DNA of 20,000 nt from an uncultured virus (IMG/VR IMGVR_UViG_3300020165_000001) (taxonomy: Duplodnaviria > Heunggongvirae > Uroviricota > Caudoviricetes). The stretch is from IMG/VR virus record IMGVR_UViG_3300020165_000001, one strand, 5' to 3'. A model generated the notes under the pieces. The model saw only the letters and a program-made list of their open reading frames with translations, was not told the DNA's origin and did no database searches. The position numbers and the translations under genes are program-made. Positions 1,359-19,707 of this stretch are shown here, piece after piece (within the stretch, counting starts at the first letter, position 1; each line of letters begins with the position of its first letter).

Positions 1359-1360
1359 TT

Positions 1361-3379: not shown

Positions 3380-3381
3380 TT

Positions 3382-3516
3382 ATGCCAGCAAGAGGATTAT
3401 ACGCAAATATGAATGCTAGAAAAAAAGCAGGTACTTCTAGATCTAAAAAGAATACTACAATATCTAAAAAAGCATATTCTAATATGAAATCTGGATTTAA
3501 AAATAAAAAGAAGTAA
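3382..3516 (+). CDS. Small highly basic protein, 44 aa (not in ORF track)
   Basis: MPARGLYANMNARKKAGTSRSKKNTTISKKAYSNMKSGFKNKKK*. It fills the gap between two large genes exactly: ATG is 2 nt after the upstream TAA, and its TAA overlaps the next ATG (TAATG). 14 K/R, no D/E. Confidence 0.8.
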   Translation: MPARGLYANMNARKKAGTSRSKKNTTISKKAYSNMKSGFKNKKK

Positions 3517-6500
3517 TGGCAGAAGACTATAGATCAGGTTTAAATATGCTGTTAGGTGATTTAGCTAAAAACGATGTCAACGTTCCTAGTCCAGAAGAAG
3601 CAATTAGTCAACAATATGACGCTCCTATGGAGGGGCCGTCAACACTTAGTTCTGTGATACAAGGACTAGATATCTCAGGACAACAAGATATAACTTTTGA
3701 TAGAATGGCTCAAGGACAAGCCGCTTCACAGTTAGGTGCTGATGAGTATGGTAAGTTAGATGAATTAAAGTATGGCTCTGCTCCTGATCAACAAATAGTA
3801 GATCCTAATGCTATGATAGGCTCTACTGGAGAAAGAGTAGGGAGAGGATTAAAAGCAGGTTGGGGTGATTTATTATATGGTACTGGTGAAACAGTAGATT
3901 TTATTAATGCTTGGGCTAGACCAGGAGATGTAGAGCCTTCTACTTCTGTTGGTGAATGGTTTCAAAAGATAGGTACAGAATATCAAAATGAAAATGCTTT
4001 AATTCTTTCTGAAGATTTAAAAGACATTACCTTTCAAGATATGTTTAAGGGAGAGTTTTGGTCTTCTAAGATATCTAGACTAGTTCCTTATGCTATGTCA
4101 TTTGTTATACCTTACGGAGGAGGTGCTAAGGTAGGAGCTTCATTGTTAGGAAGATTTGGGGTATGGTCTGCTAAAGGTATATCTAAAGCTAATAAATTAG
4201 GGAAGGTAGGTATTCCTGTTGGGGCTATGGGTAAAGGTATAGGAATGGGTGGTAATGGAATAAAAGGATCTGGTATTTTAGGGAAGTTAGCATTTGATGG
4301 TGGTAAAAAAGGATATGCTCAAACAAAATTTATGCGTAATGCTGGAGGTTTTATTGGAGGGGGTGCTGCTGCGAATATGGCGGAAGGAGCATATCTTTCA
4401 GGAGAAGCATATTCTGAAATGTTACATGAGGTAGATGCTGATGGAAATAAACTATTTACCCCAGAAGAAGCGGCTAATCATGCAGCTGGCGTAATGTATG
4501 ATAATGCTAAATGGATGGGTGTAGATATGGTTCAATATGGATTACTATTTGGTGGTATAGGTAAAAATATGGCTAAAAGATTATTACTAAACCCTCTAAA
4601 ATCAAATCCATTTAAAGCTAGTATAAAAGGGCTTACTGCTCATACCGTAAGAAAAGTATTACCTAATTTACCAGCAGCAGGAGCTTATGCAAGTGTTGAA
4701 GGTATAACAGAAGGTATACAAGAAACATATCAAGAGTGGATTAAATACGCTAACATACAAGAAGCTAAAGGTGAAGATTACGAATCTATGACTGATTGGG
4801 TTAAAGATGAGTACGGAAATTATAAGCCAGAAATTAGAGATTTATTCTGGTCTTCTGTAGGATTAGGAGGCGCTATGGGTGGTGCTAGAGGTTATTTTGA
4901 CTCAGCAGCAGCAAGGCATAAAGCTCTTAATGAGCATCAAGAGGCTATCAATACTAATGCTCAAATAATGGATGCGGCTAAAACACCTGATCAACAGTAT
5001 GTTGCGGAGCAAATGGTGCAAGATAATATTATATCACTTAATGTATGGAATTATAGAGGTGATGGATCTATTGTTATGGAGTATATTAACAATATGGTTA
5101 AGGATAAAAAGATGGATCAACAAACTGCTGATGAATACATTCAGGCGGTAGAGCAAGCAGAAAAGAATTACGAAAAGCATACAGTTAATAGTATGCTCAC
5201 TGAAGCTGGTGCAAAACAAGCATTTTTTAGAGAGACAAGAAAATCTAGAAACCAAGCACAACAAGCATTACAAATAGCCTCTTATGAAAATGATAAAGCT
5301 GTTACTATTGAGAACATTAAAGATGATAAAAAACAGAAAAAAGCTCTTGCTATATTAGAGCAAAATCATTTATCTATAATGGAAACATTAGAACAGGATA
5401 TGGCTGTTTTAAATAGAGAGATAGAAGACATATACACTTTAAGGGTTGACGAGGCTCCTACAGCTAAATCTACAGGCAAGAGAGATGCTAGGTATAAAAC
5501 TCAAGGCCTTACTAAAGATGAGATAAATATATATTCACAAGAAGGAGCCAAGGAAGCTGAAGCAGAAGCTAAGAAGAAAGCAGATGCAGAACCTTCTATA
5601 ATATCTAAAGTTGTAGAAGGAGCTAAAGAATTAGGAGGTAAAGCTGTAGAGGGGGCTAAAAGCTTATTTGGTAAGGCTAAAGAAAAAGCTACATCAGAAG
5701 AAACTAAAAAAGCAGTAGAAGATATTAAAAAATATACTAAAGAAGAAATAACTCCTTCTGCTAAAGAAAAATTAGTTAAAGCTTTAGAAGCTGGTAAAAT
5801 AGGAGTGAAGGCTGCTTTAAAAATTATTGGTAGTGGAGTAAATAAAATCATTAACAATAAAGATGTAAAAGAAGCCATAGAAAAATTTAAACAGGCTAAG
5901 AAAGAAACAGTAGAAGCTGCTGAAGAAAAGAAACAAGAGTCTGACGAAGACGTAAAAAAAAAAGACCAAACCCAAGTAGTTCCTAAAACAGAAGAGTATA
6001 GCAAGACAGAAGAAGCTCTTAAAAAGAAAGGAATACAGTTAGAAGCTGCAAGTATATCTAAAGTAGTAGATAAAGAAGGTAAGGCAAGTACTACTAGTTA
6101 TATGTTAAAAACAGCTACAGGTAAAGTTATTAAGTTTTTTACATCTAAACCTTTCGGAGCAGAAGCTCTAACAAACACACCACAAAATATAAAGTTAAAT
6201 TTAGTAGAGCCAGTAGCTGGTAAAGCTGATGTAGTTGAAGTAAATGGTAAGTTATACTTTCAGTATCAAAAAGGAGCTCCACTATATGAAAGTAAAATCC
6301 AAGTTATAGTAGGAGATAAAGTTATTGGTCAGTTAGAATACCAATCTTATAAAGAAGATACAGGTCCTACTAAAAAAGCTAAAAAGAAAGATGCTCGTAC
6401 TATAGATAAAGTAATAGGTTCTGTTAAGCAAACGAAAGAAAGTTTTAAAAAATTACTTGATAAGTCTTTTAAGAATATTCCTGCACAAGAGGATATATTA

Positions 6501-9500
6501 ATTAATCGTAATTTAGAAGTATACACTCATTCAGGATTAGGGGCAGCAGCATTAACTAGAAGTATTGTACAAAAACAATTCCCAGGTGCGCGTGGGTATG
6601 TAATATCATCTAAGCTAGCAGACGACTATGGGCAAGAAGCTACATCTTTAGCAATAGGCTCTGTTGTTTTAATTAATGAGAATCAAGTAGAACAAACTGA
6701 TTTAATACATGAATTAGGACATGTGTATTACGGCTTAATGGAAGATACTCCATTAATGAAAAGAATTAAAAAGCTTTTACCGAAATCATCTTTATATCAA
6801 AAAACTAGAGAAGAATATCCTGAGCTAACTTTAATGAGTTATAAGGGTAATAATCTGACTTTAGGTAGTATTTATAGAAATGTACTTAATAATAAACCAG
6901 ACGCTACTAATGACGTTATAAGCATTGCAGAAAACATTGCAATAGCAGAAAGACAAGGAGATAGCGCAAGAAGTACAGAGTTATTTAATAACTTAAGAAT
7001 ACAATTAAAAGCACAAGGAGTTAAAGATGTTAGAGTAGACCAACAAAGACATTTGCTTGAAGAAACGTTTACTAGAACACTAGAAGCCTATTCTAAAGGA
7101 ACAGTTAATTCGGTTATAAAAGGATCAGAAGCTCAAGAATTATTAAAGAAAGATTTAATAGAGTTTTATAAAAAAACTAAGAAGCTAGCAACTGACGAAG
7201 AAGCTAAAAGACTTTTAGATTTATCTGTAGATAACATACAGTCATTAGACTTAGAGGCTTCTATTAAGCACATCTTACTAGATTTTAACTCTGGAGAGCG
7301 CACTATACCTGTAGTGCAAAACTCTGCTTATGGTGATATCAAAAGAGCTAATAAGAAAGCATTTTCATCTAGAGCAACATACTCAGCAGTATCATCTTAT
7401 ATAGGAGATTTTATAGGCAGAAGCTTAACTCCTACTGTTATGACTAATAGAGTTATGAAAAGAATAGCAGAAGACTCTAGCTTAAAAGTTGCAGATGTTA
7501 AACAATTAAGAGAGTATGTAAAAGCTATTATAGTTCAGATTACTAGACCTGCAGATTTAAAGTTAGCTGACGAAACATTAGACAATCAGCTTTCTGATAT
7601 AGGATTAGATTTAAATGAAAAAGAAAACATGGATCAGGCTTCTGAGTCAGATCAATACAAAGAATCTAATAAAATAATTGCATTACCAACAACTACATCT
7701 AATTTTATAAAGAAGATTACTGAAGTATATAACTTTAAAAACCCTGACAATGTAATTAACAGGAAGAAGTTGTTGTATGATATGTATGTTATAGCTAAAA
7801 GCACACAGAACGATCCATTTGATTTTATTCCTACATTAAGAAAATCTGATAGTGCTGAGATTATGGCTATGTTAAGGGTATTAGATGGTGTTTATGGTAA
7901 AGACAAAGTTCTTACTAACGCTAAGCTAATGGAGCTTAAAGGCCCAATAGAAGGTATTAATATAGAGGTTCTAACTCAACAAGCATTAGAGATAGGATAT
8001 ATGGGCGCTAGAAAGTGGAAAACTTATAAAACCATGAGTAAAACTTTAGAGGCTGGTGTTATAAATGATGTTATGAATAACCTTAAAGAAAACACAGCTA
8101 AAGGGAAAAGAATAGCAAAAATATATGATAACTTATTTTATGATTCTAAAGAAAATAAATTTAAAGAAGTTCTTGATGAGAACGATATAAACACAGCTGC
8201 TAAAAGAGTTTTGTCTGAAATTTTAGATGACACTAACAAGGGTGTTTTAATAGACAAGGACGCTTTATTAAATGCAAGGATATTATTTAAAGGCAAAAGA
8301 CAAACATTAAGTCAGATACTTTTTAATCATACTAGATTTAAAAATGGCAAGCCTAATTTAGAGAACCAATCTTTAATGGGTATAACTAAAGAAGGTAAGT
8401 TTGCTGCAAAAATAGGAAAGTATGAGGCTAAAGGATTAATATACGGCAAGCAGGGTGAGTTAAAAGTAATACTTACAGAAGGTCTTGTAGCTTCTAGAGC
8501 TATTAACTATTTATCTATGGTAGATAATGTAGAGGGAGATGGCATAAGTGTGTTTAATAAGGAGAATGGTTTGCATAATAGAGCTAAAAATGTAGCAACT
8601 ATTATAAACAACGAAACTATTATAGAGTCAGACAGTGTTATGCACCCTGATAATAATATTTATACTGATATGGCTTTTAGAAAAAAGCAAGCTGGAGTAT
8701 TAGCTAATAACGATGGTAAGGTGACAAATAATCCTTTTAACTTTACTATACACTCAGGAATGATGAGAACATTAGTTACAAGAGCTGATGGTGTTAAGTA
8801 TGAGGGTAGAGCATCAAAATTAAATAGCGTAACTCCTAGTGAGTTAATAGCAGGTGATTTCTTTAGCTTCTTATCTAAATACAATGAGTTAATGGCTGGT
8901 AACGAAGCTATGGGTATATACGATCAAGCTATTGCAGTATTTTCTGATAAAAGTAGAAGGTACTATGTAGAAAGTATTATAGCTCATAACGATAAAATGA
9001 AAAAGTTATTGCTTACTAAAGTAAAAAACAATCCTGCTTATAATGCTAAGTATTTAAAAGGAAGTAAAGTCTTTCCATATACTATAGAAAATGGTAAGAT
9101 TAAAGAAATGCCTGCTCTTATTAAAAAATGGAAAAGCTATGCAAATAAAAATGCAGAACTATTTAAAGGCAATACTGATTTAAAAGAGGTTAAAAATTTA
9201 GACGCTGCTTTAGACGCTTTCTTAACATCATATATTGCTAATAAGTTTATGGCTCAACAATTGTTTGTGCATGATCATAGACAATCTAAAGACCAAATAG
9301 ACTATATTAAAAGAGCTGCTGGTTCAATAGCTAGCCATATTGTATTTGATAGAAATACACAAATAGAGCCTATTATTATTAAAGATTACTTTGTTGATGA
9401 GGAAGGTAATATAGGTACCGATGAAAAAGAAGACAGTGCTATTGAAAACGATGCAATGGGATATGTTCTTCCTGAGCAAGCTAAATACATTAGAGCTAAG

Positions 9501-12500
9501 TATGGAGAAGTACAAAAGGTAGGTAATGTATTTAAGTTTGTATATCACTATACAGAAACAGAAGGTAAGTTAAAAGGCAACACAACATATTTAAAGTTTG
9601 CTGTACACACGTTAACACCTAAGCTAGAATCCACAAGTCCTTATCTTAAAAACATAGGAGATATGCTTAGAAAAAGACAAGAGCAAGTTCAAGAAATGTC
9701 TAACACTCCAGGTAACCTTGTTATAGCTGCATCTGAATCTGCTGCTAAACTATTCTTTGATGGGCCTTCTGGTAAAACAGGAAGTAAGTATGTATACGAT
9801 GTTTCTACATCTGAAAACATAGATCAGATAATGGCTAGTCAAGATGAGATATATAAAGGAGACAATGGTTACCAAGCATTATCAGGAGAGGGATTAGGTA
9901 TACAGTTAGAATTAGATAAGCAAGCAAGTGAAAGATTCTTTCCTTCTCAATTATTCTACAACTTAGCAACAAACATAGAAACTAAAGAGGAGCAAGCAAT
10001 TGTAGAGGAAATGTTTATATTACGACAAAGAGTAATGGAAGCAAACAATTATTCTAGAAATAATGCTGGAGAACAAAATGGCCTTATTGTAGATAACATG
10101 GCTACAGAATCACAAGTCCTACAAGAGAGAGATGGATTTAAGTCTTCTGTAAGCGCAGATGTATTTGGTGTACTACTAGACTCTGTTTTTCCTAAAGTTG
10201 ATCCTAGATATCCTTTTGTTAATGCGTCTTATAACTCTATAGCAACAGGACGTATAACACACAAAGGTACTAAAATGTACACTAAAGGTTCTATTGCTTA
10301 TCAATCTGCAAGTCTAGGTATGGGGTTACAATCTTATAAAGAAGGTTTATTTAAAGGAGATGAGAGTGTAATTGCTTCAGAAGCTATTGTTCCTGGATAC
10401 TTACAAAAAGATGGAGTTAAAAAAGGAGACTTGTTTATCGGCACAAGAGTACCTGCTCACGGTAAAGTAAGTAGTTCTATTTTTGTAGTAAAAGATTTTC
10501 ATGATCAAATAGGAAACTCACCAACATCTAATATTACTATACCTGCACATGTAAGTAAGAATTGGGGAGCCGATTTAGATGGCGATTCGGTTCACATGAA
10601 TTTTAAATGGACAAACGCAGAAGTTAAAAAGAAAGGTAAAGAATGGAGAGAGTTTTCTAATGAGTTTTTTGACAAGTATGTACAGTTAATTAGTCAACCT
10701 AAAAGACAGGCTGAAATTAAAGCTGATATTAACTTTGAAAACGATGCTAAGGCAGCTATTGCTAAAGCAGAAAGTGTTTATGGCTCTAAAGCTAAACAAG
10801 AAGAGTCACAGCTTACACCTATGGGCGATGCGCAAATGTTTGAAGATAATGTGCCAGCAAAGAATTTAGTTGGTATAATCGCAGCATTACAAAGAACGTT
10901 TAATATATTTTCTAACACAGAAGAAAAACTACCTTTTAGTATAAAGATTAATAATAAAACGGAAGACAAGTTTTTTGATGATTCTTCATTAGAAGGTGGT
11001 GTAGGTAATTGGTTTGGTGTAGCACAGCTTCTTAATATAGCATTAGACAACGCTAAACATCAATTTGCTGGGAAGCTTGGTATAGATATGCAAAGTGTAT
11101 TCCCTTATGTTACTTTAAGAAGATTAGGGTATTCATTAAATGATTTATCAGTATTATTTAATTCTCCTATAGTAAAAGAGTATATGGAGTTTAAAAGAAG
11201 TAGAAGTAAAAACTATATATCAAAAGATAGTGATATTAAAGAAATGTTCTTAGAAGATCAAACTATAAACTTTAACGAGTTAGTTATGTTCTTAGAAAAA
11301 AGAGGTGTAAAAGGATTAACTACAAAAACTGAAAAGGGTAGAGCTTACAATCAAAAGACTTGGGATAAGTTAGCTAATAGAATTACAGGGGGTATTGAGA
11401 TAAATTTAGATGCATTGTCTAAAGAGGACGCAACGGCAGAGATTGACACTATACTAATGCTATATGGTTTAAACAAATACAATCAAGATATAGTAAGGCC
11501 TTTTTCTAAAGCGTTTACTGTACATCAAACTATAGAAAAGAATCCTTTAGAACTTAGAAAGATAAGAGATGATATAGCAAGAATACAAGCTGGTCCTGTT
11601 ATTATAAATGAAAAAGCTAAAGCTGGTGGATTAAACATATCTTACACATTAGGAGCTAGTTCACGTAATAGCATTGTACAGCATGCTATGGGATTATTTG
11701 ATAGTGTATTAGAAAGAGCACAAAGAACTGATATAAGATATACTCAGTATATGAGAGATATTATTAATGATGCTACTTTTGAAGAATTAAATAAAAATAA
11801 ATTAACTAAGCCAAAGATTATAAATCAAATTATAATAAATAACTTAAACAAGAAAATTGAGTTTTTAAGACCTTTTGCACAAAAAGATAGCCCTACACTA
11901 ATAGAAGAATTTAAATTATTACAAGGACGTAATAAGGAAAATAAATTCTTAAATAGAATTATAGAGGTTAATGAAAAAGGAAACAAAGTAGTTATTAATA
12001 GAGCTGAGATTACAGAGTTTACATCTTATAAGGCTATAGAGCAAATAAAAGAATCCTTTAATCAACTTACTGAAACTGAAAAAGATTTTGTGTTTGCATT
12101 AGAAGCGCAGTTTAATGGATTTGGATTTACAGGAGGAGCTGGTGCTGCTGGGTCTTTTGTGCCTTTCTTTGATGACGTGTATATAGATAAAATAAATAAA
12201 TCTATGTCTGCTATTATAGAAGAAAATCAAAATAGAGAAGCAAACTTAGTAGGTTTATTTGCAACAGAGTATACAGATGCAAAAAACATGATTGTAAAGA
12301 AAGCTAAAAAATACTCCACTGAAGACAAGATAGACATAGCTTCTAAGCTAGACAATTCTTTTGTAGACCCAACAAGAAAAGCTAAAAAGATAATATCTTC
12401 TGATACTTCTTATAATAATGATTATTTAGGAAGTGGTGTTAGAATGCTAGATATAGATACTTGGGCTAAAGACAAAGGAATTGATTTATCTAAAATATCT

Positions 12501-14960
12501 CCAGAATCAGATACATTTACTATACTAAGAAATAGATATGACACATATAGAGAGCAATATAGACTAGTTAAAGAGTTTGAAGCTAAGTTAGAAAGCAAAC
12601 CATTATCTAGCTATGAAATAGATAGCCTATATGAGCTAGGTGTTAAGTTTAGAAAGATGGACAACTCAGCTACTAAAGGTATTGCTCATGCTATAGAAAA
12701 AGAAATAGGACAAAGAGCATTTAGAATACAATCTGAAAAGCTTAGAAAATTAGGAGCTAAGCAGGGATACGAATACAATACTCCTGGAGTAGATGGTGTA
12801 GCACAAGAAGATATTAGTAATTTTCAAAAATGGCTGGGGTCTAATGATATGACATCTAAAAGGCCTGAAATGCAATATCTAATTAATGAGGTGCAAGAAC
12901 AGTACAGAGCTTACTTAAGATCCTTTACAAAATACAAGAATATTATAGAGAGTGCTAACAGATCTCTTGTCAGATCTAAAATGAGAAGTTTAAGTATTTT
13001 AGAAAGAGTTAGACAAGGTTTTGATGTTAATGCAAGATATGAGTTTATATATGGTAATATAGCAACATTAGAAAATGGCAATATAAGACTGCTAAGTGAG
13101 CAAGAAATAAATGAAAAAGAATTAACACAAGAAGAGATTAATTACTACAATGCTTTTAAAAAGATAGGAAGTGATTTATTAAATGTACAAGATGTTGTAG
13201 TTCCAGGTATGCAAATGGGCAATATAGAATCAATGTCTAGAAGTGGATTATTTGGACTATACAATACAACAATAGATTCTAGTGACTACAATAGAGTTAG
13301 GGTAAAAGGTGTTGACAAAAACGGAGACAAGGTTTATAAAACTTTTTACGAATGGAAGTATGATGTTTACAAAGGTAGGAGTGGTTCTATTACATTAGAG
13401 TCTGGTAAGAAAATAAATGAGTTAGAAAAGTTAAGAAAACTAGCTAAAGACTACAAGTCTAGAGGTATGCATATGGACGGAGAAAGTATTATGCTTTCTG
13501 ACGCGGAGTATGATGCTTTAATAAACAACGGATCAAGACTTAAGAGAATGATGGGTGATGGAGCTATGAATAGTTTAGATGCCGAGTTAATACAAGAGTA
13601 TGAAAGAAGAAGAGGTGTTAAGGCTGCTACTACTAGTTATGATATACACTCTGGTATGCTAGAGTTTGTAAGAAGCTCATTGTTTATGCATGGTGAAAAC
13701 TTACAAGAAAATCCAAATGGCTTTGCTGGTATGAATAAAATGGCTGTTCTTACAGATTCTATTATAGGATTTAATAAAGGTTTAGATAATAAAAAAGCTG
13801 TTGAGTATTTAACTAAATGGTGGAAAGAAGGATTTTTAGAAAAGAAACAACAGGAGGGTGTATTTGGTAAAACAGGAGATAAAGTTATAGATGGCTTTGT
13901 TAGGCTTACATCACTTAGATTGCTTGGTTTTAATATGGGTGTAGGTGTTGGTAATATATTAGCAGGTAAGTATCAAGAACTACGTAAGCGTGGTGGTAAG
14001 CAATTTGCATTAGGAGAAAAAAGATATTGGGTTGATGGTAAAGACAAGTCTTGGAATCTATTAAAAAAACACAGGATAGTAGAATATAGTTTTGATGAAT
14101 TTATACACTTATCTGAAAGAAAGGGAATGTATGGAACATTAGAAAGATGGTCTTATATATTTATGGATAGATCAGAAAGTTACATACAAGGCTCTGCATT
14201 TTTAGGAGAGCTTACACAAAGAGAGTATGATGGTCTTGATCCTATTACAGATAAACGAGTAATGCAGATTAATCATAAAATATCTACACTGCACGGAGAA
14301 GGATACACAGCATTAGACGCAAGCACACTATCTATGTATTCTTATGGTAGGGCGTTAATGCAATTTAAAAAATGGTTTGTTACTACACTAAGAGATAGAT
14401 TAAAGCCTGAAGATATAAATAGATTTGGAGAGGTTAATATAGGTAGTTACAGAGCATCTAGCGAATTTGTTGTAAATTTATTTAGAAAGTATTTTGCTGG
14501 AGAGATGACGAAGAAAAACATTATGGATATATTTAATGAGTCTAGCAAAGTAAGACAAAAAGAAATTATCAATCATTTAAACGGTATAGGTATAGGGGTA
14601 ACTTTATTAAGTTTAATTGCACTTGCAGAAGATGATGACGATATTGATTCTACAACATTAAGAACAATGAAAAAGTTGTCTCATGATGTATTTGTAACTA
14701 CAGATATAAATAGATTTACAAATTATACAATAAAGCCTTCTGCTTACAGTACGTTAAGAAATTCTACTAAAGTTATAGGAGAAGCTGTTAGAGGTGATAA
14801 GGTTAAAAGAAGTGGCCCATACGGAGGCAAAGGAGAGTCACAAGCTATAAAAACACTTAAGTATGATATAGCCCCATTAGCTGAAGTTAGAAAAGATATA
14901 AAAAACATTTTCTTTGGTGGTAGTGAACCAAAAAAAGAAACAAGCTCATTAATAAGATAA
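3516..14960 (+). CDS. Giant virion-associated polyprotein: two-barrel (DPBB) DNA-dependent RNA polymerase fused to a zincin metalloprotease and ejection-protein-like termini, 3814 aa
   Basis: Catalytic GADLDGD (D2353-D2357, nt 10572-10586) is preceded by RVP (R2311) and followed by ALDNAK (D2511). Upstream motifs are DYIKR, NDAMGY (D1979), SESAAK (K2078) and GLGIQLE. HELGH is at aa 1065-1069, with a downstream EE at aa 1182-1183. No Cys. The architecture matches crAss-like virion RNAPs (type example Cellulophaga phage phi14:2 gp66). Confidence 0.88.
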   Translation: MAEDYRSGLNMLLGDLAKNDVNVPSPEEAISQQYDAPMEGPSTLSSVIQGLDISGQQDITFDRMAQGQAASQLGADEYGKLDELKYGSAPDQQIVDPNAMIGSTGERVGRGLKAGWGDLLYGTGETVDFINAWARPGDVEPSTSVGEWFQKIGTEYQNENALILSEDLKDITFQDMFKGEFWSSKISRLVPYAMSFVIPYGGGAKVGASLLGRFGVWSAKGISKANKLGKVGIPVGAMGKGIGMGGNGIKGSGILGKLAFDGGKKGYAQTKFMRNAGGFIGGGAAANMAEGAYLSGEAYSEMLHEVDADGNKLFTPEEAANHAAGVMYDNAKWMGVDMVQYGLLFGGIGKNMAKRLLLNPLKSNPFKASIKGLTAHTVRKVLPNLPAAGAYASVEGITEGIQETYQEWIKYANIQEAKGEDYESMTDWVKDEYGNYKPEIRDLFWSSVGLGGAMGGARGYFDSAAARHKALNEHQEAINTNAQIMDAAKTPDQQYVAEQMVQDNIISLNVWNYRGDGSIVMEYINNMVKDKKMDQQTADEYIQAVEQAEKNYEKHTVNSMLTEAGAKQAFFRETRKSRNQAQQALQIASYENDKAVTIENIKDDKKQKKALAILEQNHLSIMETLEQDMAVLNREIEDIYTLRVDEAPTAKSTGKRDARYKTQGLTKDEINIYSQEGAKEAEAEAKKKADAEPSIISKVVEGAKELGGKAVEGAKSLFGKAKEKATSEETKKAVEDIKKYTKEEITPSAKEKLVKALEAGKIGVKAALKIIGSGVNKIINNKDVKEAIEKFKQAKKETVEAAEEKKQESDEDVKKKDQTQVVPKTEEYSKTEEALKKKGIQLEAASISKVVDKEGKASTTSYMLKTATGKVIKFFTSKPFGAEALTNTPQNIKLNLVEPVAGKADVVEVNGKLYFQYQKGAPLYESKIQVIVGDKVIGQLEYQSYKEDTGPTKKAKKKDARTIDKVIGSVKQTKESFKKLLDKSFKNIPAQEDILINRNLEVYTHSGLGAAALTRSIVQKQFPGARGYVISSKLADDYGQEATSLAIGSVVLINENQVEQTDLIHELGHVYYGLMEDTPLMKRIKKLLPKSSLYQKTREEYPELTLMSYKGNNLTLGSIYRNVLNNKPDATNDVISIAENIAIAERQGDSARSTELFNNLRIQLKAQGVKDVRVDQQRHLLEETFTRTLEAYSKGTVNSVIKGSEAQELLKKDLIEFYKKTKKLATDEEAKRLLDLSVDNIQSLDLEASIKHILLDFNSGERTIPVVQNSAYGDIKRANKKAFSSRATYSAVSSYIGDFIGRSLTPTVMTNRVMKRIAEDSSLKVADVKQLREYVKAIIVQITRPADLKLADETLDNQLSDIGLDLNEKENMDQASESDQYKESNKIIALPTTTSNFIKKITEVYNFKNPDNVINRKKLLYDMYVIAKSTQNDPFDFIPTLRKSDSAEIMAMLRVLDGVYGKDKVLTNAKLMELKGPIEGINIEVLTQQALEIGYMGARKWKTYKTMSKTLEAGVINDVMNNLKENTAKGKRIAKIYDNLFYDSKENKFKEVLDENDINTAAKRVLSEILDDTNKGVLIDKDALLNARILFKGKRQTLSQILFNHTRFKNGKPNLENQSLMGITKEGKFAAKIGKYEAKGLIYGKQGELKVILTEGLVASRAINYLSMVDNVEGDGISVFNKENGLHNRAKNVATIINNETIIESDSVMHPDNNIYTDMAFRKKQAGVLANNDGKVTNNPFNFTIHSGMMRTLVTRADGVKYEGRASKLNSVTPSELIAGDFFSFLSKYNELMAGNEAMGIYDQAIAVFSDKSRRYYVESIIAHNDKMKKLLLTKVKNNPAYNAKYLKGSKVFPYTIENGKIKEMPALIKKWKSYANKNAELFKGNTDLKEVKNLDAALDAFLTSYIANKFMAQQLFVHDHRQSKDQIDYIKRAAGSIASHIVFDRNTQIEPIIIKDYFVDEEGNIGTDEKEDSAIENDAMGYVLPEQAKYIRAKYGEVQKVGNVFKFVYHYTETEGKLKGNTTYLKFAVHTLTPKLESTSPYLKNIGDMLRKRQEQVQEMSNTPGNLVIAASESAAKLFFDGPSGKTGSKYVYDVSTSENIDQIMASQDEIYKGDNGYQALSGEGLGIQLELDKQASERFFPSQLFYNLATNIETKEEQAIVEEMFILRQRVMEANNYSRNNAGEQNGLIVDNMATESQVLQERDGFKSSVSADVFGVLLDSVFPKVDPRYPFVNASYNSIATGRITHKGTKMYTKGSIAYQSASLGMGLQSYKEGLFKGDESVIASEAIVPGYLQKDGVKKGDLFIGTRVPAHGKVSSSIFVVKDFHDQIGNSPTSNITIPAHVSKNWGADLDGDSVHMNFKWTNAEVKKKGKEWREFSNEFFDKYVQLISQPKRQAEIKADINFENDAKAAIAKAESVYGSKAKQEESQLTPMGDAQMFEDNVPAKNLVGIIAALQRTFNIFSNTEEKLPFSIKINNKTEDKFFDDSSLEGGVGNWFGVAQLLNIALDNAKHQFAGKLGIDMQSVFPYVTLRRLGYSLNDLSVLFNSPIVKEYMEFKRSRSKNYISKDSDIKEMFLEDQTINFNELVMFLEKRGVKGLTTKTEKGRAYNQKTWDKLANRITGGIEINLDALSKEDATAEIDTILMLYGLNKYNQDIVRPFSKAFTVHQTIEKNPLELRKIRDDIARIQAGPVIINEKAKAGGLNISYTLGASSRNSIVQHAMGLFDSVLERAQRTDIRYTQYMRDIINDATFEELNKNKLTKPKIINQIIINNLNKKIEFLRPFAQKDSPTLIEEFKLLQGRNKENKFLNRIIEVNEKGNKVVINRAEITEFTSYKAIEQIKESFNQLTETEKDFVFALEAQFNGFGFTGGAGAAGSFVPFFDDVYIDKINKSMSAIIEENQNREANLVGLFATEYTDAKNMIVKKAKKYSTEDKIDIASKLDNSFVDPTRKAKKIISSDTSYNNDYLGSGVRMLDIDTWAKDKGIDLSKISPESDTFTILRNRYDTYREQYRLVKEFEAKLESKPLSSYEIDSLYELGVKFRKMDNSATKGIAHAIEKEIGQRAFRIQSEKLRKLGAKQGYEYNTPGVDGVAQEDISNFQKWLGSNDMTSKRPEMQYLINEVQEQYRAYLRSFTKYKNIIESANRSLVRSKMRSLSILERVRQGFDVNARYEFIYGNIATLENGNIRLLSEQEINEKELTQEEINYYNAFKKIGSDLLNVQDVVVPGMQMGNIESMSRSGLFGLYNTTIDSSDYNRVRVKGVDKNGDKVYKTFYEWKYDVYKGRSGSITLESGKKINELEKLRKLAKDYKSRGMHMDGESIMLSDAEYDALINNGSRLKRMMGDGAMNSLDAELIQEYERRRGVKAATTSYDIHSGMLEFVRSSLFMHGENLQENPNGFAGMNKMAVLTDSIIGFNKGLDNKKAVEYLTKWWKEGFLEKKQQEGVFGKTGDKVIDGFVRLTSLRLLGFNMGVGVGNILAGKYQELRKRGGKQFALGEKRYWVDGKDKSWNLLKKHRIVEYSFDEFIHLSERKGMYGTLERWSYIFMDRSESYIQGSAFLGELTQREYDGLDPITDKRVMQINHKISTLHGEGYTALDASTLSMYSYGRALMQFKKWFVTTLRDRLKPEDINRFGEVNIGSYRASSEFVVNLFRKYFAGEMTKKNIMDIFNESSKVRQKEIINHLNGIGIGVTLLSLIALAEDDDDIDSTTLRTMKKLSHDVFVTTDINRFTNYTIKPSAYSTLRNSTKVIGEAVRGDKVKRSGPYGGKGESQAIKTLKYDIAPLAEVRKDIKNIFFGGSEPKKETSSLIR
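5607..5672 (+). repeat. Imperfect 33-bp tandem repeat encoding 11-aa amphipathic repeats
   Basis: KVVEGAKELGG / KAVEGAKSLFG; DNA aaagttgtagaaggagctaaa... / aaagctgtagagggggctaaa...; lies within a K/E/A-rich linker. Confidence 0.7.
6708..7064 (+). other. Zincin-like metalloprotease motif within the giant protein
   Basis: DLIHELGHVYY (HExxH at nt 6708-6722) is preceded by a hydrophobic strand (VVLINE). LLEETF (EE at nt 7059-7064) is the candidate third zinc ligand. Confidence 0.72.
9450..11057 (+). other. RNA polymerase catalytic core (two double-psi beta-barrels) within the giant protein
   Basis: Ordered motifs DAMGY...FK...YLK...SAAK (Lys-bearing barrel), then RVP...GADLDGD (Asp-triad barrel), then DNAK. 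The R-to-first-D spacing is 42 aa, similar to the RxP...DxDGD arrangement in beta-prime subunits and RNAi RdRPs. Confidence 0.85.
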
Positions 14961-15383: not shown

Positions 15384-15740
15384 ATGGCAAACGTAGATGA
15401 TTTAGTAAGAAAAGGTTTTGGACAAATGGGTTCTGTATTTACATCTGTAAGTGGAGCAATTACTCCTCCTTCAAATAAAGTATTTATAGCAATAACTTTT
15501 TTAGCAGAAACAACTTTAGATTCTTCTAGTGGTTTAGTGGCAGACACTAATCATTTTACCACTGAATTTCCTGGAACTAATGTAGCTGCTCATGATGCAG
15601 GTGCTGCAACTGACATTTCAGGTACTGGTGGAGATGCTATAGATGTTAATGATATATTTCCAGCTGGAATTACTATATATGGTAGATGGACAGAAATTGA
15701 TATAACTGACGGAATGGTTATTGCTTATATAGGAGAATAG
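15384..15740 (+). CDS. Small acidic beta-rich protein, 118 aa, putative virion structural protein; paralog of 14989..15363
   Basis: A-rich leader (aaataaaaataaaATG). FGQMGSVF...FIAIT...FPAGITIYGRW. Its TAG stop overlaps the next GTG start. Confidence 0.65.
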   Translation: MANVDDLVRKGFGQMGSVFTSVSGAITPPSNKVFIAITFLAETTLDSSSGLVADTNHFTTEFPGTNVAAHDAGAATDISGTGGDAIDVNDIFPAGITIYGRWTEIDITDGMVIAYIGE

Positions 15741-16903
15741 TGTTAGGTTTAGGCTCTAATATAACTGGTATATCTAAAGTAGGAACTACTATAGTTACAG
15801 ATAATTTAGTCTTAAGACATGATTATAAAATGAGGGCTGTTGAACCATTAAGTGATGGTGCTGCTGATATTAATGCTGATGCTGCTAATAATGAGTATAT
15901 AGATGTTGGTCTAATACCTATAACAACAAACGACGTTTCAATATCCGCTTGGGTGTATATAACGACTTGGGTAAATTATGCTGGTATAGTTGTTAATAGA
16001 TCTAATAGCGGCACAAACCCAGGACTAGAGTTAAGATGTGCTAATGGAGCTCAAAAATTCCAACTCGTAATAGATGACGCGAACGGTAGTTCGTCAGCAG
16101 CTATATCATCCACGTTAAACTCTAACCAATGGTACCACGTTTGTGGTGTTTGGGACAGAAGTGGTAACATGTCTTTGTATATTGACGGCGTGCTAGACGG
16201 AACAGACGATATTACTGGTAATCCATTAACTTTAACACACTCTACAGCTACTAAAATAGGACAAGCTAGCACAACTGAAATGAGGGGTTACGTATGTAAC
16301 GTGGGCTACTGGGATAGAGTTTTAAGCCAAGCTGAGGTAAAATCCATAATGAATAAAAATTACGATAGCCTTTCGGCTAGCGAGAAAACGGATTTAGTTT
16401 CATGGTGGAATTTGGATAGTACAGTGCCTGGATTTACTACTACGGTTTATGATAACCATGGGGGAGAGACTTTTGGTGGTGAGATTTTAACTCAACCAAT
16501 ACTAACAGGTACTAATTGGTCAAACGTTAATGGAACTGTTAGTGATGGCATTGGTACGGTGACTATTCCTGCAGATGGTACTTATAGTTATTTTAGGCAC
16601 GGAAATATGACATCAACCTATATAACAGGGGGTATATATAGAGCTGTGGTAACGGTAAAAGGTACGGCTGGAAAAGATATAAGAGTGAGAAGTGAGATTG
16701 GTTCAGACAACGGTGGTTTGACGGCTACAACGGGGCGTATTACACTAACGGGTAATCTTCAGACGGAGACTTTTGATTTTAAATCTAATGGCCAAGATGA
16801 CGATTTTAGAATCGAGAGGCATGATTCCGACGAGGCATATTCATTTGAAATTCACTCAGTATCACTTAAGAAACTAAACGGTAACACAGGAACTTTATCA
16901 TAA
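15740..16903 (+). CDS. LamG/concanavalin A-like domain protein, 387 aa (putative tail/fibre adhesin)
   Basis: LamG signature: SISAWVY...NQWYHVCGVWD...MSLYIDG...IG...GYVCNVGYWDRVLSQAEV, then LVSWWNLD and a C-terminal beta-sandwich module. The GTG start is coupled to the upstream stop. Confidence 0.8.
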   Translation: MLGLGSNITGISKVGTTIVTDNLVLRHDYKMRAVEPLSDGAADINADAANNEYIDVGLIPITTNDVSISAWVYITTWVNYAGIVVNRSNSGTNPGLELRCANGAQKFQLVIDDANGSSSAAISSTLNSNQWYHVCGVWDRSGNMSLYIDGVLDGTDDITGNPLTLTHSTATKIGQASTTEMRGYVCNVGYWDRVLSQAEVKSIMNKNYDSLSASEKTDLVSWWNLDSTVPGFTTTVYDNHGGETFGGEILTQPILTGTNWSNVNGTVSDGIGTVTIPADGTYSYFRHGNMTSTYITGGIYRAVVTVKGTAGKDIRVRSEIGSDNGGLTATTGRITLTGNLQTETFDFKSNGQDDDFRIERHDSDEAYSFEIHSVSLKKLNGNTGTLS

Positions 16904-19707
16904 TGGCGACGACAATACAACAAATAGAATTACCGAAAAAAGCTAGGGCAGTAGATACCTCTGGAAACAACAATCACGGGCAAATATATTCTGGTCGAGC
17001 GTTAGAATTTGATGGGGTTAGTGATTATTTAAACACAGGTGAAGTATTTCAATCTACATTTAGAGATTCGTTTTCAATATCTTTTTGGGTAAAACCAGAT
17101 GATGGGCAGCCAGCAGCATATATAAGTGTACTAGGAGCAAGAGATGCTACTGGTGATGATTCAAGAGTATATTTTAATATCCAAACTACTGGAAAAATAT
17201 CGTTTTATTACGAAGTTGAAGGTACAGTTATTAATGCAGAAACAAATTTAGCTGTATTTAATAATGGGGCTAATTCATGGCATCGTGTCGTTGGAGTTGT
17301 TAATAATACAACTAATCAAATGCATGTTTATGTAAATGGGGTAGATCAAACTTTAGATGGAACTAATGATGGGGATATAGGTAGTACAGATCTTAGTACT
17401 TACACTTCAGTTAGACCTTTGTTTATAGGAGGCGCAAGTAATGATGGACTTCTTGCCAATATTTATGCAGGATTAATATCTGATGTCCAAATATGGAATA
17501 CAGTACTGTCTGCAGATGACGTAACCTACGATTACTTAAATCCTGAATCCCTTGCTTTAAATGCTAGTGGTACATCCCTTACAGAATCCAACCTTAAATT
17601 ATGGTACCCAATGCAAGATGGTCATAGAGGCCAACAATCATATATTTTAGATGGCGCTAATAGTGGGTTGGGAGTTGAGTTAGCTAACTTTGCAGACGGA
17701 AACATAACATTTAACAATAGCGGAGCTAGTGTAGCTTCTTCCAATAGCCTTAACTCGTATAACGCTGTAGGTGATGGGTCAACAAGTGATGCGAGACCAA
17801 GGGTTTCGTTTGCACTTACAACTGGCCAAACATATAAGATAGAGTACACCCCAACTTTAGTGTTAGATGGTGGTGTGCTTGATTTTTTTGTAGGTGGAAG
17901 TAGACTTATTGCTAACAACGACATAAATACATCTTTTACTAAAACTTTTACAAGCGCTGATGGTTATGAAGGGTTTGATTTTGACGGGTCACAAGCTTTT
18001 AACGTAGACTTTACTTTATCGATAAAAGCAATAAACGACAAACACCACGCGACGACTGTGTTTTATGGGGATGAGTTGGTTTTAGAAGGTGATTTCAGTA
18101 ACAGTGGCGCCGCATGGACCACTTATGGAAATATAACCGTGGCAGTCAACGGCGGAGCTTTTGTATCCACAGGAGACGCTGATGGTGGTTATGGGGCTTG
18201 CGTGCAAGCTGAAACTTTAATAGCGGGAAGAACTTATGAATTAAACTTTGACGTAACGGCTGTTACTGGTGGAGGAAGTGTTTATAATTATTGTGACAGT
18301 TTAACGAAAGACCTAGGGACAGCTTCTGTTACGGGTTTTACTGATACTTTCGTATCTGATGGAACGGGTGGGATTGATGTTAGAACCACTTGTTCCAATG
18401 GTCAAGCCGTAACTATAGATAACATATCCCTCAAAGAAGTCGGTGTAGCATCAGGCTGGACAGACGCAGATCAACAATTACATATACCGCAAACGGCTTT
18501 GCAATCGTATAATGAGTTGGCTTGGTTTGATGGGACTATAGCTAGTGATGGATACGTAGATTTAGACAGTGCAATTACTACAGATGGTAATAATTGGTCT
18601 TTATCTTTCTGGGTTTTTCATGACGACAATGGTCAAGCTTTTGATATTGTTTTTGGAGATGGCGCTAATCAATTTATAGCTTTAAGTAAGGACTCAGTTG
18701 ATAAGTTAATGTATAGAGATAGTAGTAATACCTACCACGCAATATCAGACGCAGCTATACCAGAGTCCGAGTGGGTTCATATAACTATTACAGCTATAGC
18801 CAACACAAGTATCACCGCTTACGTAAATGGAGTAGCGCAAGCGACTAATAGCACTATGACAAACACCACGTTACTTTTAGAGAGGTTCATGCGTGGTTAT
18901 TCTTCAGTTTTCCACCATACGTTTGGTACAATAAACGAAATATCATATTATAATGACGTTTTAACATCAGCTGAAGTGTTAGATCTATTTAACGATGGAA
19001 AAGCTAAATCAGCTTTAGAAGCAGATGGTAGCGCTGGTTTAGTTGGTTATTGGAGAAATAATGGTTTATCTGAATGGAAAGATTTAAAAGGTAGTAACGA
19101 TGGTAATACGACAGCTGGAGTTGTAGAAACAATTCTAATCCCACAAGGCGTAGATTCTACGCGAGATAATCAAGGATTTATAATGAATAAGCAGAAAGAT
19201 ACGAGTTGCTTGAATTTGACTAATGGTAGTGATAATCCGTATGTGGATTTAGGAAGTGAAACGGTTGTGGCTGCTGATGATGCTGTGAGTTTTTCCGTAT
19301 GGCTAAAACCTGATGATGTTGTGCAGAATTATTTCCTTGGGCACTCGTCCCAGAATTCTATAAAAATATACGATGCAACTACAATATTCTATAGAGCTGA
19401 TAATGCCCCTGTGAATTTCACAGTACAAACTATTATACCCGAACAATGGGTGCACGTAGTGTTGGTGAAAGCTGGTGGTGGCACTGATGAGATGTCTGTT
19501 TATGTAAACGGCGCTTTGAACGGAACCGCAAGCACTGATACAGAGACTTCAAACGAACCACTTGACTACCGATACTTAGGCGCAGAGAGAGATTGGACTA
19601 ATTCTTTCAGGGGTGCTGTAGATGGGTTTTTGATATATAACAAAGCTTTAGATGGAACTGAAATACTAAGAAATTATAACGCAACAAAAGGTAATCACAG
19701 AAATTAA
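16903..19707 (+). CDS. Multi-LamG protein, 934 aa (putative receptor-binding/fibre protein)
   Basis: Three LamG repeats: ALEFDGVSDY..FSISFWVK..WHRVVGV..YVNG..SDVQIWN; WSLSFWV..WVHI..YVNG..NEISYYN; SFSVWLK..WVHVV..YVNG..DGFLIYN. Two inserted modules lie between repeats 1 and 2. TAATG coupling with the upstream gene. Confidence 0.85.
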   Translation: MATTIQQIELPKKARAVDTSGNNNHGQIYSGRALEFDGVSDYLNTGEVFQSTFRDSFSISFWVKPDDGQPAAYISVLGARDATGDDSRVYFNIQTTGKISFYYEVEGTVINAETNLAVFNNGANSWHRVVGVVNNTTNQMHVYVNGVDQTLDGTNDGDIGSTDLSTYTSVRPLFIGGASNDGLLANIYAGLISDVQIWNTVLSADDVTYDYLNPESLALNASGTSLTESNLKLWYPMQDGHRGQQSYILDGANSGLGVELANFADGNITFNNSGASVASSNSLNSYNAVGDGSTSDARPRVSFALTTGQTYKIEYTPTLVLDGGVLDFFVGGSRLIANNDINTSFTKTFTSADGYEGFDFDGSQAFNVDFTLSIKAINDKHHATTVFYGDELVLEGDFSNSGAAWTTYGNITVAVNGGAFVSTGDADGGYGACVQAETLIAGRTYELNFDVTAVTGGGSVYNYCDSLTKDLGTASVTGFTDTFVSDGTGGIDVRTTCSNGQAVTIDNISLKEVGVASGWTDADQQLHIPQTALQSYNELAWFDGTIASDGYVDLDSAITTDGNNWSLSFWVFHDDNGQAFDIVFGDGANQFIALSKDSVDKLMYRDSSNTYHAISDAAIPESEWVHITITAIANTSITAYVNGVAQATNSTMTNTTLLLERFMRGYSSVFHHTFGTINEISYYNDVLTSAEVLDLFNDGKAKSALEADGSAGLVGYWRNNGLSEWKDLKGSNDGNTTAGVVETILIPQGVDSTRDNQGFIMNKQKDTSCLNLTNGSDNPYVDLGSETVVAADDAVSFSVWLKPDDVVQNYFLGHSSQNSIKIYDATTIFYRADNAPVNFTVQTIIPEQWVHVVLVKAGGGTDEMSVYVNGALNGTASTDTETSNEPLDYRYLGAERDWTNSFRGAVDGFLIYNKALDGTEILRNYNATKGNHRN

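Follow-up and report, generated by a model that had tools for sequence, protein, structure and literature searches.

Does an RNA polymerase (RNAP) whose catalytic loop reads DLDGD belong with the virion enzymes of crAss-like phages, or with the polymerases of eukaryotic RNA interference (RNAi), in which the same five residues occur? The question is raised by a 20,000-nucleotide stretch of DNA from an uncultured virus of the Caudoviricetes (IMG/VR record IMGVR_UViG_3300020165_000001), referred to here in its entirety as the window, and by the giant open reading frame (ORF) within it, P0002, which carries the loop. A first-pass annotation of the window had read the loop as matching the RNAi signature rather than the crAss type. 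Our analysis indicates instead, with a probability of about 0.85, that P0002 is a fused virion transcription-block polyprotein of a Crassvirales-related phage, whose central part is a two-barrel DNA-dependent RNA polymerase and an orthologue in kind of gp66 of phage phi14:2. The enzyme type, the strategy of injecting a polymerase and the fusion into one polyprotein are already in print; what differs from the known is the canonical Gly of the loop in a large, diverse and uncultured Crassvirales-related group.

The catalytic loop is part of a conserved polymerase signature

Translation of positions 10446-11057 on the plus strand gives RVPAHGK...NWGADLDGDSVH...NIALDNAK, in agreement with the earlier reading, and the RVP (10446), DLDGD (10572-10586) and DNAK (to 11057) motifs re-derived in this way all lie in one ORF. 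As a bare string, DLDGD is not significant and is weak evidence: D.DGD occurs once in the six frames of the window and in 127 of 2,000 composition-preserving shuffles of P0002. We take the motif as real because it is conserved and is set in a matching fold. A word-indexed search with residues 1900-2700 returned 54 homologues of 2,269-4,355 residues, on contigs of up to ~73 kb (with one of 105 kb), and G[AS]DxDGD is present in all 54. The three loop aspartates are retained in every one of the 180 proteins with all five loop columns filled, out of 201 in the profile alignment described below. In a 23-sequence full-length alignment that extends down to 21% identity, residues R2311, P2313, G2351, D2353, D2355, G2356, D2357, L2510 and D2511 are invariant, and so are K1932, R1933, K2007, K2027 and the HExxH motif at residues 1065-1069. 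A chance string in a structural protein was considered and rejected, as the Asp triad, R.P and DNAK are all conserved and accompany a polymerase fold.

Each of these motifs has a partner in phi14:2 gp66 when the two proteins are aligned with hhalign, which pairs IGTRVPAHGKVSS with gp66 IGYRIPNQGQSSN. The loop itself (WGADLDGDSVH) falls on gp66 TGSDFDIDKMY, the stretch R2311-P2313 on YRIPNQG, and the basic first-barrel residues on DFFKR and TYLKY. Further downstream, NIALDNAK is paired with NAFVDNAK, of which VDNAK forms residues 1611-1615. The first-pass annotation had taken the downstream LDNAK as an additional RDR-like feature; this part of its argument falls away, as gp66 has VDNAK at the aligned place. 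According to the RDR2 preprint, K923 of RDR2, K1119 of QDE-1 and K1615 of the phi14:2 enzyme occupy the site of the trigger-loop His of multisubunit polymerases (Pol II), the residue that contacts the β-phosphate of the nucleoside triphosphate (NTP). Since K2514 of P0002 aligns with gp66 K1615, the equivalent of the QDE-1 and RDR2 lysines, we assign it as the trigger-loop lysine. Between the loop and this motif, a helix at residues 2448-2467 pairs with gp66 ~1540-1560 and, judging from this alignment, probably corresponds to the bridge helix of gp66, numbered 1529-1559 in the gp66 preprint.

Predicted fold of the polymerase core

The core was folded from an alignment (A2) of residues 1651-2570 with 28 relatives from IMG/VR loci. 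The resulting AlphaFold2 (AF2) model has a mean predicted local distance difference test (pLDDT) score of 83 and a predicted template modelling (pTM) score of 0.80, and the two-barrel catalytic core is recognized in this predicted model, not in a solved structure. When the model is searched against the Protein Data Bank (PDB) with Foldseek, the top match is phi14:2 gp66 (6vr4_A; E 7.5e-19, TMq 0.65), followed by QDE-1 (E 5e-6 to 1e-4), RDR2 (3e-4 to 1e-3) and gp96 of phage P23-45 (1e-2); the large subunits of cellular polymerases match locally only. Superposition with VIA-align places residues 1-915 of the model on gp66 529-1666 (Z 18.5, root-mean-square deviation (rmsd) 3.7, 795 residues), with Z 18.1 for QDE-1 (498 residues) and Z 17.0 for RDR2 (429 residues). 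Thus gp66 and QDE-1 are tied on Z, while the coverage of the chain is far larger with gp66. The second barrel taken alone matches Rpb1-type subunits at Z ~10 (VIA), and the model also matches P23-45 gp96 and gp64-type enzymes.

Profile comparisons point in the same direction as the model. Residues 1899-2565 align with gp66 860-1667 in hhalign at 97.1% (E 7e-11). The A2 profile reaches proteins whose loop carries Ile or Val at the fourth position at E 1e-17 to 1e-25, and it reaches crAss001, IAS virus and Azobacteroides phage ProJPt-Bp1 at E 4e-9 to 6e-6.

P0002 is colinear with the gp67-gp66-gp65 block of phi14:2

The similarity to phi14:2 extends beyond the polymerase. In the phi14:2 GenBank record the tag gp077 denotes the protein that the paper calls gp66 (2,180 residues), and by the same offset gp078 is gp67 and gp076 is gp65; we use the numbering of the paper, except where the record is named. 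With hhalign, residues 173-461 of P0002 match gp67 155-402 (94.6%, or 93.6% with the whole alignment) and residues 3470-3718 match gp65 988-1323 (96.2%, and 95.2% in another run). When segments of the full-length alignment are compared with the phi14:2 sequences, the gp67-like, polymerase and gp65-like segments are colinear in P0002. The intervening segments (residues 480-1000, 1000-1320, 1320-1650, 2570-3100 and 3100-3450) gave nothing above 50% in hhalign against seven phi14:2 proteins. The gp66 preprint reports that gp65, gp66 and gp67 are all present in virions and that in some phages they are fused to one huge, probably cleaved polyprotein, and in the phi14:2 GenBank record each of them is annotated as a structural protein on the basis of tandem mass spectrometry (MS/MS). 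Taken together, the colinear matches and the fused forms described in the preprint lead us to read P0002 as a fused version of this block.

Survey of the fourth loop position

The gp66 preprint, from 2020, states that Gly at the fourth position of the loop is common to all previously studied two-barrel RNAPs, and that Ile or Val takes its place (DFDxD) throughout the crAss-like phages. With Gly2356, P0002 departs from the latter statement. Searched against 1.84 billion cluster representatives, the A2 profile matched 346 proteins at E <= 0.001, of which 193 reach E <= 1e-10; the best 150 of the 346, together with the first 54 homologues and P0002, make up the 201 aligned proteins. At the fourth residue, the 180 proteins with filled loop columns carry Gly (153), Val (18), Ile (8) or Ala (1); these figures lean towards relatives of the query and should not be read as prevalences. 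The proteins with Ile or Val form the distant tail of the A2 matches. Within the Gly-type set the second position is held by nine residues (L74, N18, F16, Y14, H13, K7, D6, M3 and Q2). A relative from inside the Gly group, P0095 (3,991 residues), reads DHDAD, with Ala at the fourth position.

Named phages were scanned with the degenerate pattern G.D.D.D. The scan covered 16 records, 15 from Crassvirales and one from Flavobacterium phage Fpv3, a set without Intestiviridae, Crevaviridae or members of the epsilon and zeta groups. One match with R.P 39 residues upstream is present in 14 of the 16 records, and the fourth residue of this match is Ile or Val in 13 and Gly in one. The Gly exception is ProJPt-Bp1 (Crassvirales, Suoliviridae), whose loop is DNDGD; its record (AP017903.1, ~77818-77838) contains HRTPLNG...GDDNDGDK in an open frame of 3,483 residues. 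The R.P context is absent from 11 other pattern matches examined, or from 13 when cr116_1 and cr125_1 are counted; these two phages have no R.P...G.D.D.D context, so this pattern identifies no RNAP-type loop in cr116_1. Second G.D.D.D strings that lack R.P were seen in crAss001 (~100631, GSDFDID), IAS virus (~95785, GADNDID) and cr116_1 (~11287, GADNDID). Two related phages share the string GADNDID, which could be the mark of a further conserved protein.

On the evidence of these sequences, the Gly-type group runs against the generalization of the preprint that crAss-like phages carry Ile or Val. The first-pass annotation had held that its proposal of a distinct lineage would lose its point if DxDGD proved widespread among crAss-like RNAPs. 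Broadly, the motif is widespread, being found in a large sister group and in ProJPt-Bp1. Full-text literature searching, whose coverage excluded Yutin 2018 and the Nature 2021 gp66 paper, found no publication on the Gly-type group. One paper reports new marine Crassvirales clades, and the polymerase loop is not mentioned in the part of it available to us.

Relationship to the RNA interference polymerases

Kinship between crAss-like RNAPs and RNAi polymerases, on which the first-pass annotation had drawn, is indeed proposed in the gp66 preprint, in the form of a relation to QDE-1, and the DLDGD it had attributed to plant RDRs is given in the RDR2 preprint as 830-DLDGD-834. It might then be supposed that the Gly-type phage group has a special kinship with QDE-1 and the RDRs, or that P0002 is itself an RNA-dependent polymerase. 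The Z scores, which are tied, would suit this idea, as would the Gly and the trigger-loop Lys shared with both QDE-1 and RDR2 and the literal DLDGD of the latter. We nevertheless consider it unlikely. Foldseek prefers gp66 by 13 orders of magnitude, so that the P0002 core is not structurally closer to QDE-1 and the RDRs than to the phage enzymes (E 7.5e-19 versus 5e-6 or weaker, with Z tied), and 795 residues align with gp66 as against 429-506 with the various QDE-1 and RDR2 entries. No Pfam match to an RNA-dependent RNA polymerase (RdRP) family is found in P0002 at E up to 1. The Leu that completes the literal DLDGD is only one of nine residues seen at the second position of the Gly group, the trigger-loop Lys and DNAK are present in gp66 too, and the gene lies in the structural module of a double-stranded DNA phage. 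The contrast originally drawn between an RNAi signature and a crAss type is therefore not supported in a phylogenetic sense: Gly is universal in the studied two-barrel RNAPs, Leu is variable, and the nearest structure is gp66 and no RDR.

Phylogenetic position of the Gly-type group

Two trees were calculated, one with FastTree from 113 rows and one with IQ-TREE (LG+G4, short search) from 65 rows and 814 columns, in which every third Gly-side row of the 113-row set was retained. The window lies deep among the Gly rows in the FastTree tree. In the IQ-TREE tree, one side of a branch with a Shimodaira-Hasegawa-like approximate likelihood ratio test (SH-aLRT) value of 96 consists of 35 rows, the window among them, and all 35 carry Gly. 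Across the tree, phi14:2, crAss001, IAS virus, DAC15, four cr-phages, Fpv3, ProJPt-Bp1 and P0170 group into a clan of 11 rows (support 98). The window does not nest inside any Ile/Val-type clade of the unrooted IQ-TREE tree, and the suggestion of a lineage that retains the canonical Gly, made from the loop in the first place, holds for this crAss-related two-barrel polymerase.

This placement bears on a second alternative, namely that an Ile/Val-type Crassvirales polymerase has recently regained Gly by simple reversion. Changes at this position do occur, as Gly reappears on the Ile/Val side in ProJPt-Bp1 (DNDGD) and P0177 (DHDGD). For the window a reversion is quite unlikely, as it falls within the 35 Gly rows beyond the supported branch and as 153 of the 180 aligned proteins carry Gly over a diversity that reaches down to 21% identity, which is too deep for a recent event. 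With a supported branch lying between its large Gly group and the Ile/Val enzymes of named Crassvirales, the loop of the window is in our view not a simple reversion. Rather, Gly would be the older state, and the Ile or Val of Crassvirales proper would be derived. A third alternative, in which the core is polymerase-like in shape but non-catalytic and serves as a structural or ejection relic, is very improbable. It is true that ~2,900 residues of P0002 have no recognized function in Pfam or PHROGs and that its catalysis is itself a prediction. The Asp triad, however, is kept by 180 of 180 aligned proteins, invariance down to 21% identity extends to the R.P signature, the DNAK of the trigger loop and the basic first-barrel residues, and the homologous gp66 is active and requires each of its three Asp (gp66 preprint).

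Several observations weigh against our interpretation of P0002 as a gp66-type polyprotein with an ancestral loop. The first concern the link to gp66. Neither P0002 nor the A2 profile found 6VR4 among the PDB sequences (A2 gave only a designed repeat protein), a plain hmmsearch of A2 against gp66 reported nothing, so that hhalign was needed, and tblastn with residues 1663-2995 gave no match in 50,697 phage records. As direct sequence searches fail, the link rests on the predicted structure, on hhalign and on intermediate sequences. A tblastn search with the polymerase segment of ProJPt-Bp1 likewise returned that phage alone (2 records), and BLAST is therefore unfit to survey these enzymes. For gp66 1-528, which includes the cleft-blocking domain, no counterpart was detected (hhalign of residues 1320-1650, nothing above 50%; this stretch was not folded). 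In phi14:2 one HExxH motif is located at residue 245 of gp65, on the downstream side of the polymerase, and two more occur in record gp081, whereas P0002 has its own motif upstream of the polymerase core. A plain end-to-end joining of the three proteins would not give this arrangement, and either the protease-like domain has moved or it is a different one. The crass-type tail genes, moreover, are seen in two relatives (L009 and G001, described below) and not inside the window.

The remaining objections concern the trees. The Ile/Val side includes two Gly rows, ProJPt-Bp1 on a branch of length 2.05 and P0177 inside a 16-row clan of the Val type; the position must accordingly have changed more than once, with a minimum of three changes. 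A five-row Gly subclade groups with the Ile/Val rows in the FastTree tree (drawn with a midpoint root) and inside the Gly side in the IQ-TREE tree, where three Val rows (P0195, P0197 and P0201) attach beside it. Both trees are unrooted, and an ancestral Gly relies on the statement of the preprint about the other studied RNAPs.

Organization of the polyprotein and its neighborhood

The features of the window are collected in Table 1. As a whole, P0002 yielded nothing usable in searches of Pfam, PHROGs and PDB sequences; its sole Pfam match at E up to 1, DUF4695, was judged to be due to chance. A hydropathy scan identifies a single strongly hydrophobic segment, at residues 3684-3703 (nt 14565-14624), inside the gp65-like region.

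Table 1 Features of the window and the evidence for each.
Feature	Position (nt)	Strand	Evidence or remark
Two upstream co-oriented ORFs: 3-1358 (5' open) and 1361-3379	3..3379	+	cysteine-free
ORF P0002, probable fused virion RNA polymerase polyprotein	3516..14960	+	3,814 aa; all three motifs in frame within
N-terminal region, aa 173-461, phi14:2 gp67-like	4032..4898	+	hhalign 94.6%, E 6.7e-8
Lys/Glu-rich linker, ~aa 600-1000	5313..6515	+	K+E fraction 0.27-0.33, low conservation
HExxH domain, aa 981-1320, candidate zincin-type metallopeptidase	6456..7475	+	HELGH aa 1065-1069, nt 6708-6722, invariant
Two-barrel RNA polymerase core, aa 1651-2570	8466..11225	+	AF2 model, Foldseek, VIA, hhalign
K1932-R1933 in DYIKRAAG, first-barrel region	9309..9314	+	invariant columns; putative role
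K2007	9534-9536	+	invariant; putative role
K2027	9594-9596	+	invariant; putative role
R2311-V-P2313, start of second (beta-prime-like) barrel signature R.P...G.D.D.D	10446..10454	+	R, P invariant
D2353-L-D-G-D2357, metal-binding Asp triad loop, canonical Gly2356	10572..10586	+	aligned to gp66 1361-DFDID-1365
Helix aa 2448-2467, likely bridge-helix counterpart (gp66 1529-1559)	10857..10916	+	model helix 798-817 and hhalign
L-D-N-A-K2514 (LDNAK aa 2510-2514), trigger-loop motif	11043..11057	+	hhalign to gp66 NAFVDNAK
C-terminal region, aa 3470-3718, phi14:2 gp65-like	13923..14669	+	hhalign 96.2%, E 2.5e-9
Two downstream ORFs, Laminin_G_3 (concanavalin A (ConA)-like lectin), tail-fibre-like	15740..19707	+	Pfam E 1.2e-25, 3.6e-47; phrog_8510 virion structural protein

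The domain upstream of the polymerase contains the invariant residues H1065, E1066, H1069, Y1072, Q1177, E1182 and E1183, of which E1182 and E1183 are candidates for the downstream acidic ligand. Its model has a pLDDT of 66, and it has no Foldseek match at E <= 0.001 and no Pfam match at E up to 5. In a VIA-wide comparison the best score is Z 6.8 on a short helical piece, and the Pro-Pro endopeptidases PPEP-2 (Z 5.0, 131 residues) and PPEP-3 (Z 4.7, 144 residues) score in the range of noise. The ESM Atlas returns unnamed clusters only, one of them with LPD23 on 18% of its members.

P0002 contains no cysteine in its 3,814 residues. Among 140 relatives longer than 3,000 residues, 116 are cysteine-free and 138 contain no more than two. 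Cys is also missing from both upstream ORFs (452 and 673 residues translated), and the lectin-like downstream ORFs carry 3 and 4. We conjecture that an absence of Cys would fit proteins that are threaded unfolded through the tail at ejection.

The setting of the gene was examined with the help of two relatives. In L009 the giant ORF (10001-22303) is 90-94% identical to that of the window and encodes 4,100 residues rather than 3,814; the length of the polyprotein therefore shifts by nearly 300 residues between close relatives. Upstream of it lie crAss_MUZ (E 2e-69), a 683-residue ORF, a tail-lysozyme protein and a 672-residue ORF, and the first two ORFs of the window are the last two of this series. 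The counterpart of the first ORF in close relatives has an N-terminal tail-lysozyme domain (Phage_lysozyme2 in L009 and G001). G001, a more distant relative (70,886 bp, rated 100% complete by CheckV), encodes crass-type versions of the portal protein (phrog_6547, E 2e-113), the terminase large subunit TerL (phrog_6681) and the major capsid protein (MCP; phrog_11589), together with crAss_MUZ (E 1e-130) and CrAss_Ring_1. In relatives the polyprotein gene thus comes after muzzle, ring and tail-lysozyme genes. The G001 portal shares 24-32% identity with those of Crassvirales and of Flavobacterium and Cellulophaga phages (123 records). G001 also encodes DnaB, Erf, RusA and exonucleases, and no DNA polymerase or primase was found among its 57 ORFs scanned with PHROGs; this is a smaller replication repertoire than the one described for Crassvirales. 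We estimate the genome of the source phage at roughly 65-73 kb. A scan of genome contigs found two distant contigs only, in metagenome bins labelled Gammaproteobacteria and Flavobacteriaceae, which assign no host; a marine member of the Bacteroidota would be the likely one.

The first of the two downstream ORFs (15740-16903) has weak matches to the receptor-binding N-domain of Clostridium neurotoxin (E 2e-5) and to a PHROG labelled 'toxin'. We rejected a reading of this ORF as a toxin, as these matches reflect the ConA-like lectin fold of a tail fibre.

A proposed role in early transcription

If P0002 works as its gp66 relative does, residues D2353, D2355 and D2357 of the second barrel would bind the catalytic Mg2+, the trigger-loop K2514 would contact the incoming NTP, and R2311 and P2313 would line the active center together with K1932/R1933, K2007 and K2027 of the first barrel. 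The polyprotein would be synthesized late, packaged in the capsid and driven into the host together with the DNA, and there the injected polymerase, presumably acting on a DNA template, would transcribe the early genes. The HExxH domain and the two terminal regions, gp67-like at the N terminus and gp65-like at the C terminus, would travel along, and may process or release the polymerase. In the gp66 preprint, the Ile-containing loop is described as having a conformation incompatible with Mg2+ binding that is held by the cleft-blocking domain. Gly2356 would permit the standard metal-binding turn without strain.

It is possible, and we offer this only tentatively, that the Gly-type phages form a large uncultured sister lineage of the Crassvirales (~65-73 kb) with an ancestral, unstrained loop and no self-inhibition of the kind that depends on Ile or Val, and that their polymerases are a better model for the phage ancestor of the RNAi polymerases. 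The only crAss-type virion polymerase studied in detail is gp66, crystallized in a self-inhibited form according to its preprint, as the first-pass annotation had noted, and the Gly group is a natural comparison for whether this self-inhibition depends on Ile or Val. The group would also take away one awkward step in the proposal that the eukaryotic RNAi polymerases, which bear Gly, have a phage origin. In practical terms the gain is modest, as enzymes of this type, their fusion and the injection strategy are known.

Comparison with known systems

Among known systems, phi14:2 gp66, in which we located the DFDID reported for this enzyme at residues 1361-1365, is the closest structural match. 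The R.P...G.D.D.D signature of the second barrel, the DNAK of the trigger loop and, in the first barrel, the K-R and YLK motifs are common to the two, as is the order of gp67-like, polymerase and gp65-like parts, and each lies in the block of structural genes of a crass-type phage. They differ in that phi14:2 has three proteins (1,797 + 2,180 + 1,421 residues) where the window has a single chain of 3,814 residues, in Ile1364 of gp66 versus Gly2356, and in an insert of ~100 residues after the Asp loop of gp66 that is absent in P0002. The relatives of the window also have genomes of ~70 kb, compared with 100 kb for phi14:2.

The silencing polymerases QDE-1 of Neurospora (2J7N, 7Y7P) and RDR2 (7W82, 7ROZ) share the single-chain two-barrel fold (Z 17-18), DxDGD with its Gly and the equivalent trigger-loop Lys, and RDR2 has the literal DLDGD. 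They are, however, ~12% identical to the P0002 core, align over much less of the chain than gp66 does, and are cellular silencing enzymes rather than a phage virion polyprotein.

P23-45 gp96 is described in its preprint as a two-barrel polymerase with DFDGD in a 5,002-residue virion protein that also has a metallopeptidase and membrane segments. Like P0002, gp96 (8H2M) is a giant virion protein with an embedded two-barrel polymerase (VIA Z 11.3, 351 residues aligned), but it is a far weaker match (Foldseek E 1e-2) and represents a siphovirus tape measure fusion, not a crass-type cargo block.

At the level of strategy, coliphage N4 offers a further parallel. Its virion RNA polymerase of ~3,500 residues is packed and injected, has a central catalytic module between regions for injection and packaging, and belongs to a phage of ~70 kb. 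The N4 enzyme has an unrelated, T7-like single-subunit fold, and its likeness to P0002 is one of analogy only.

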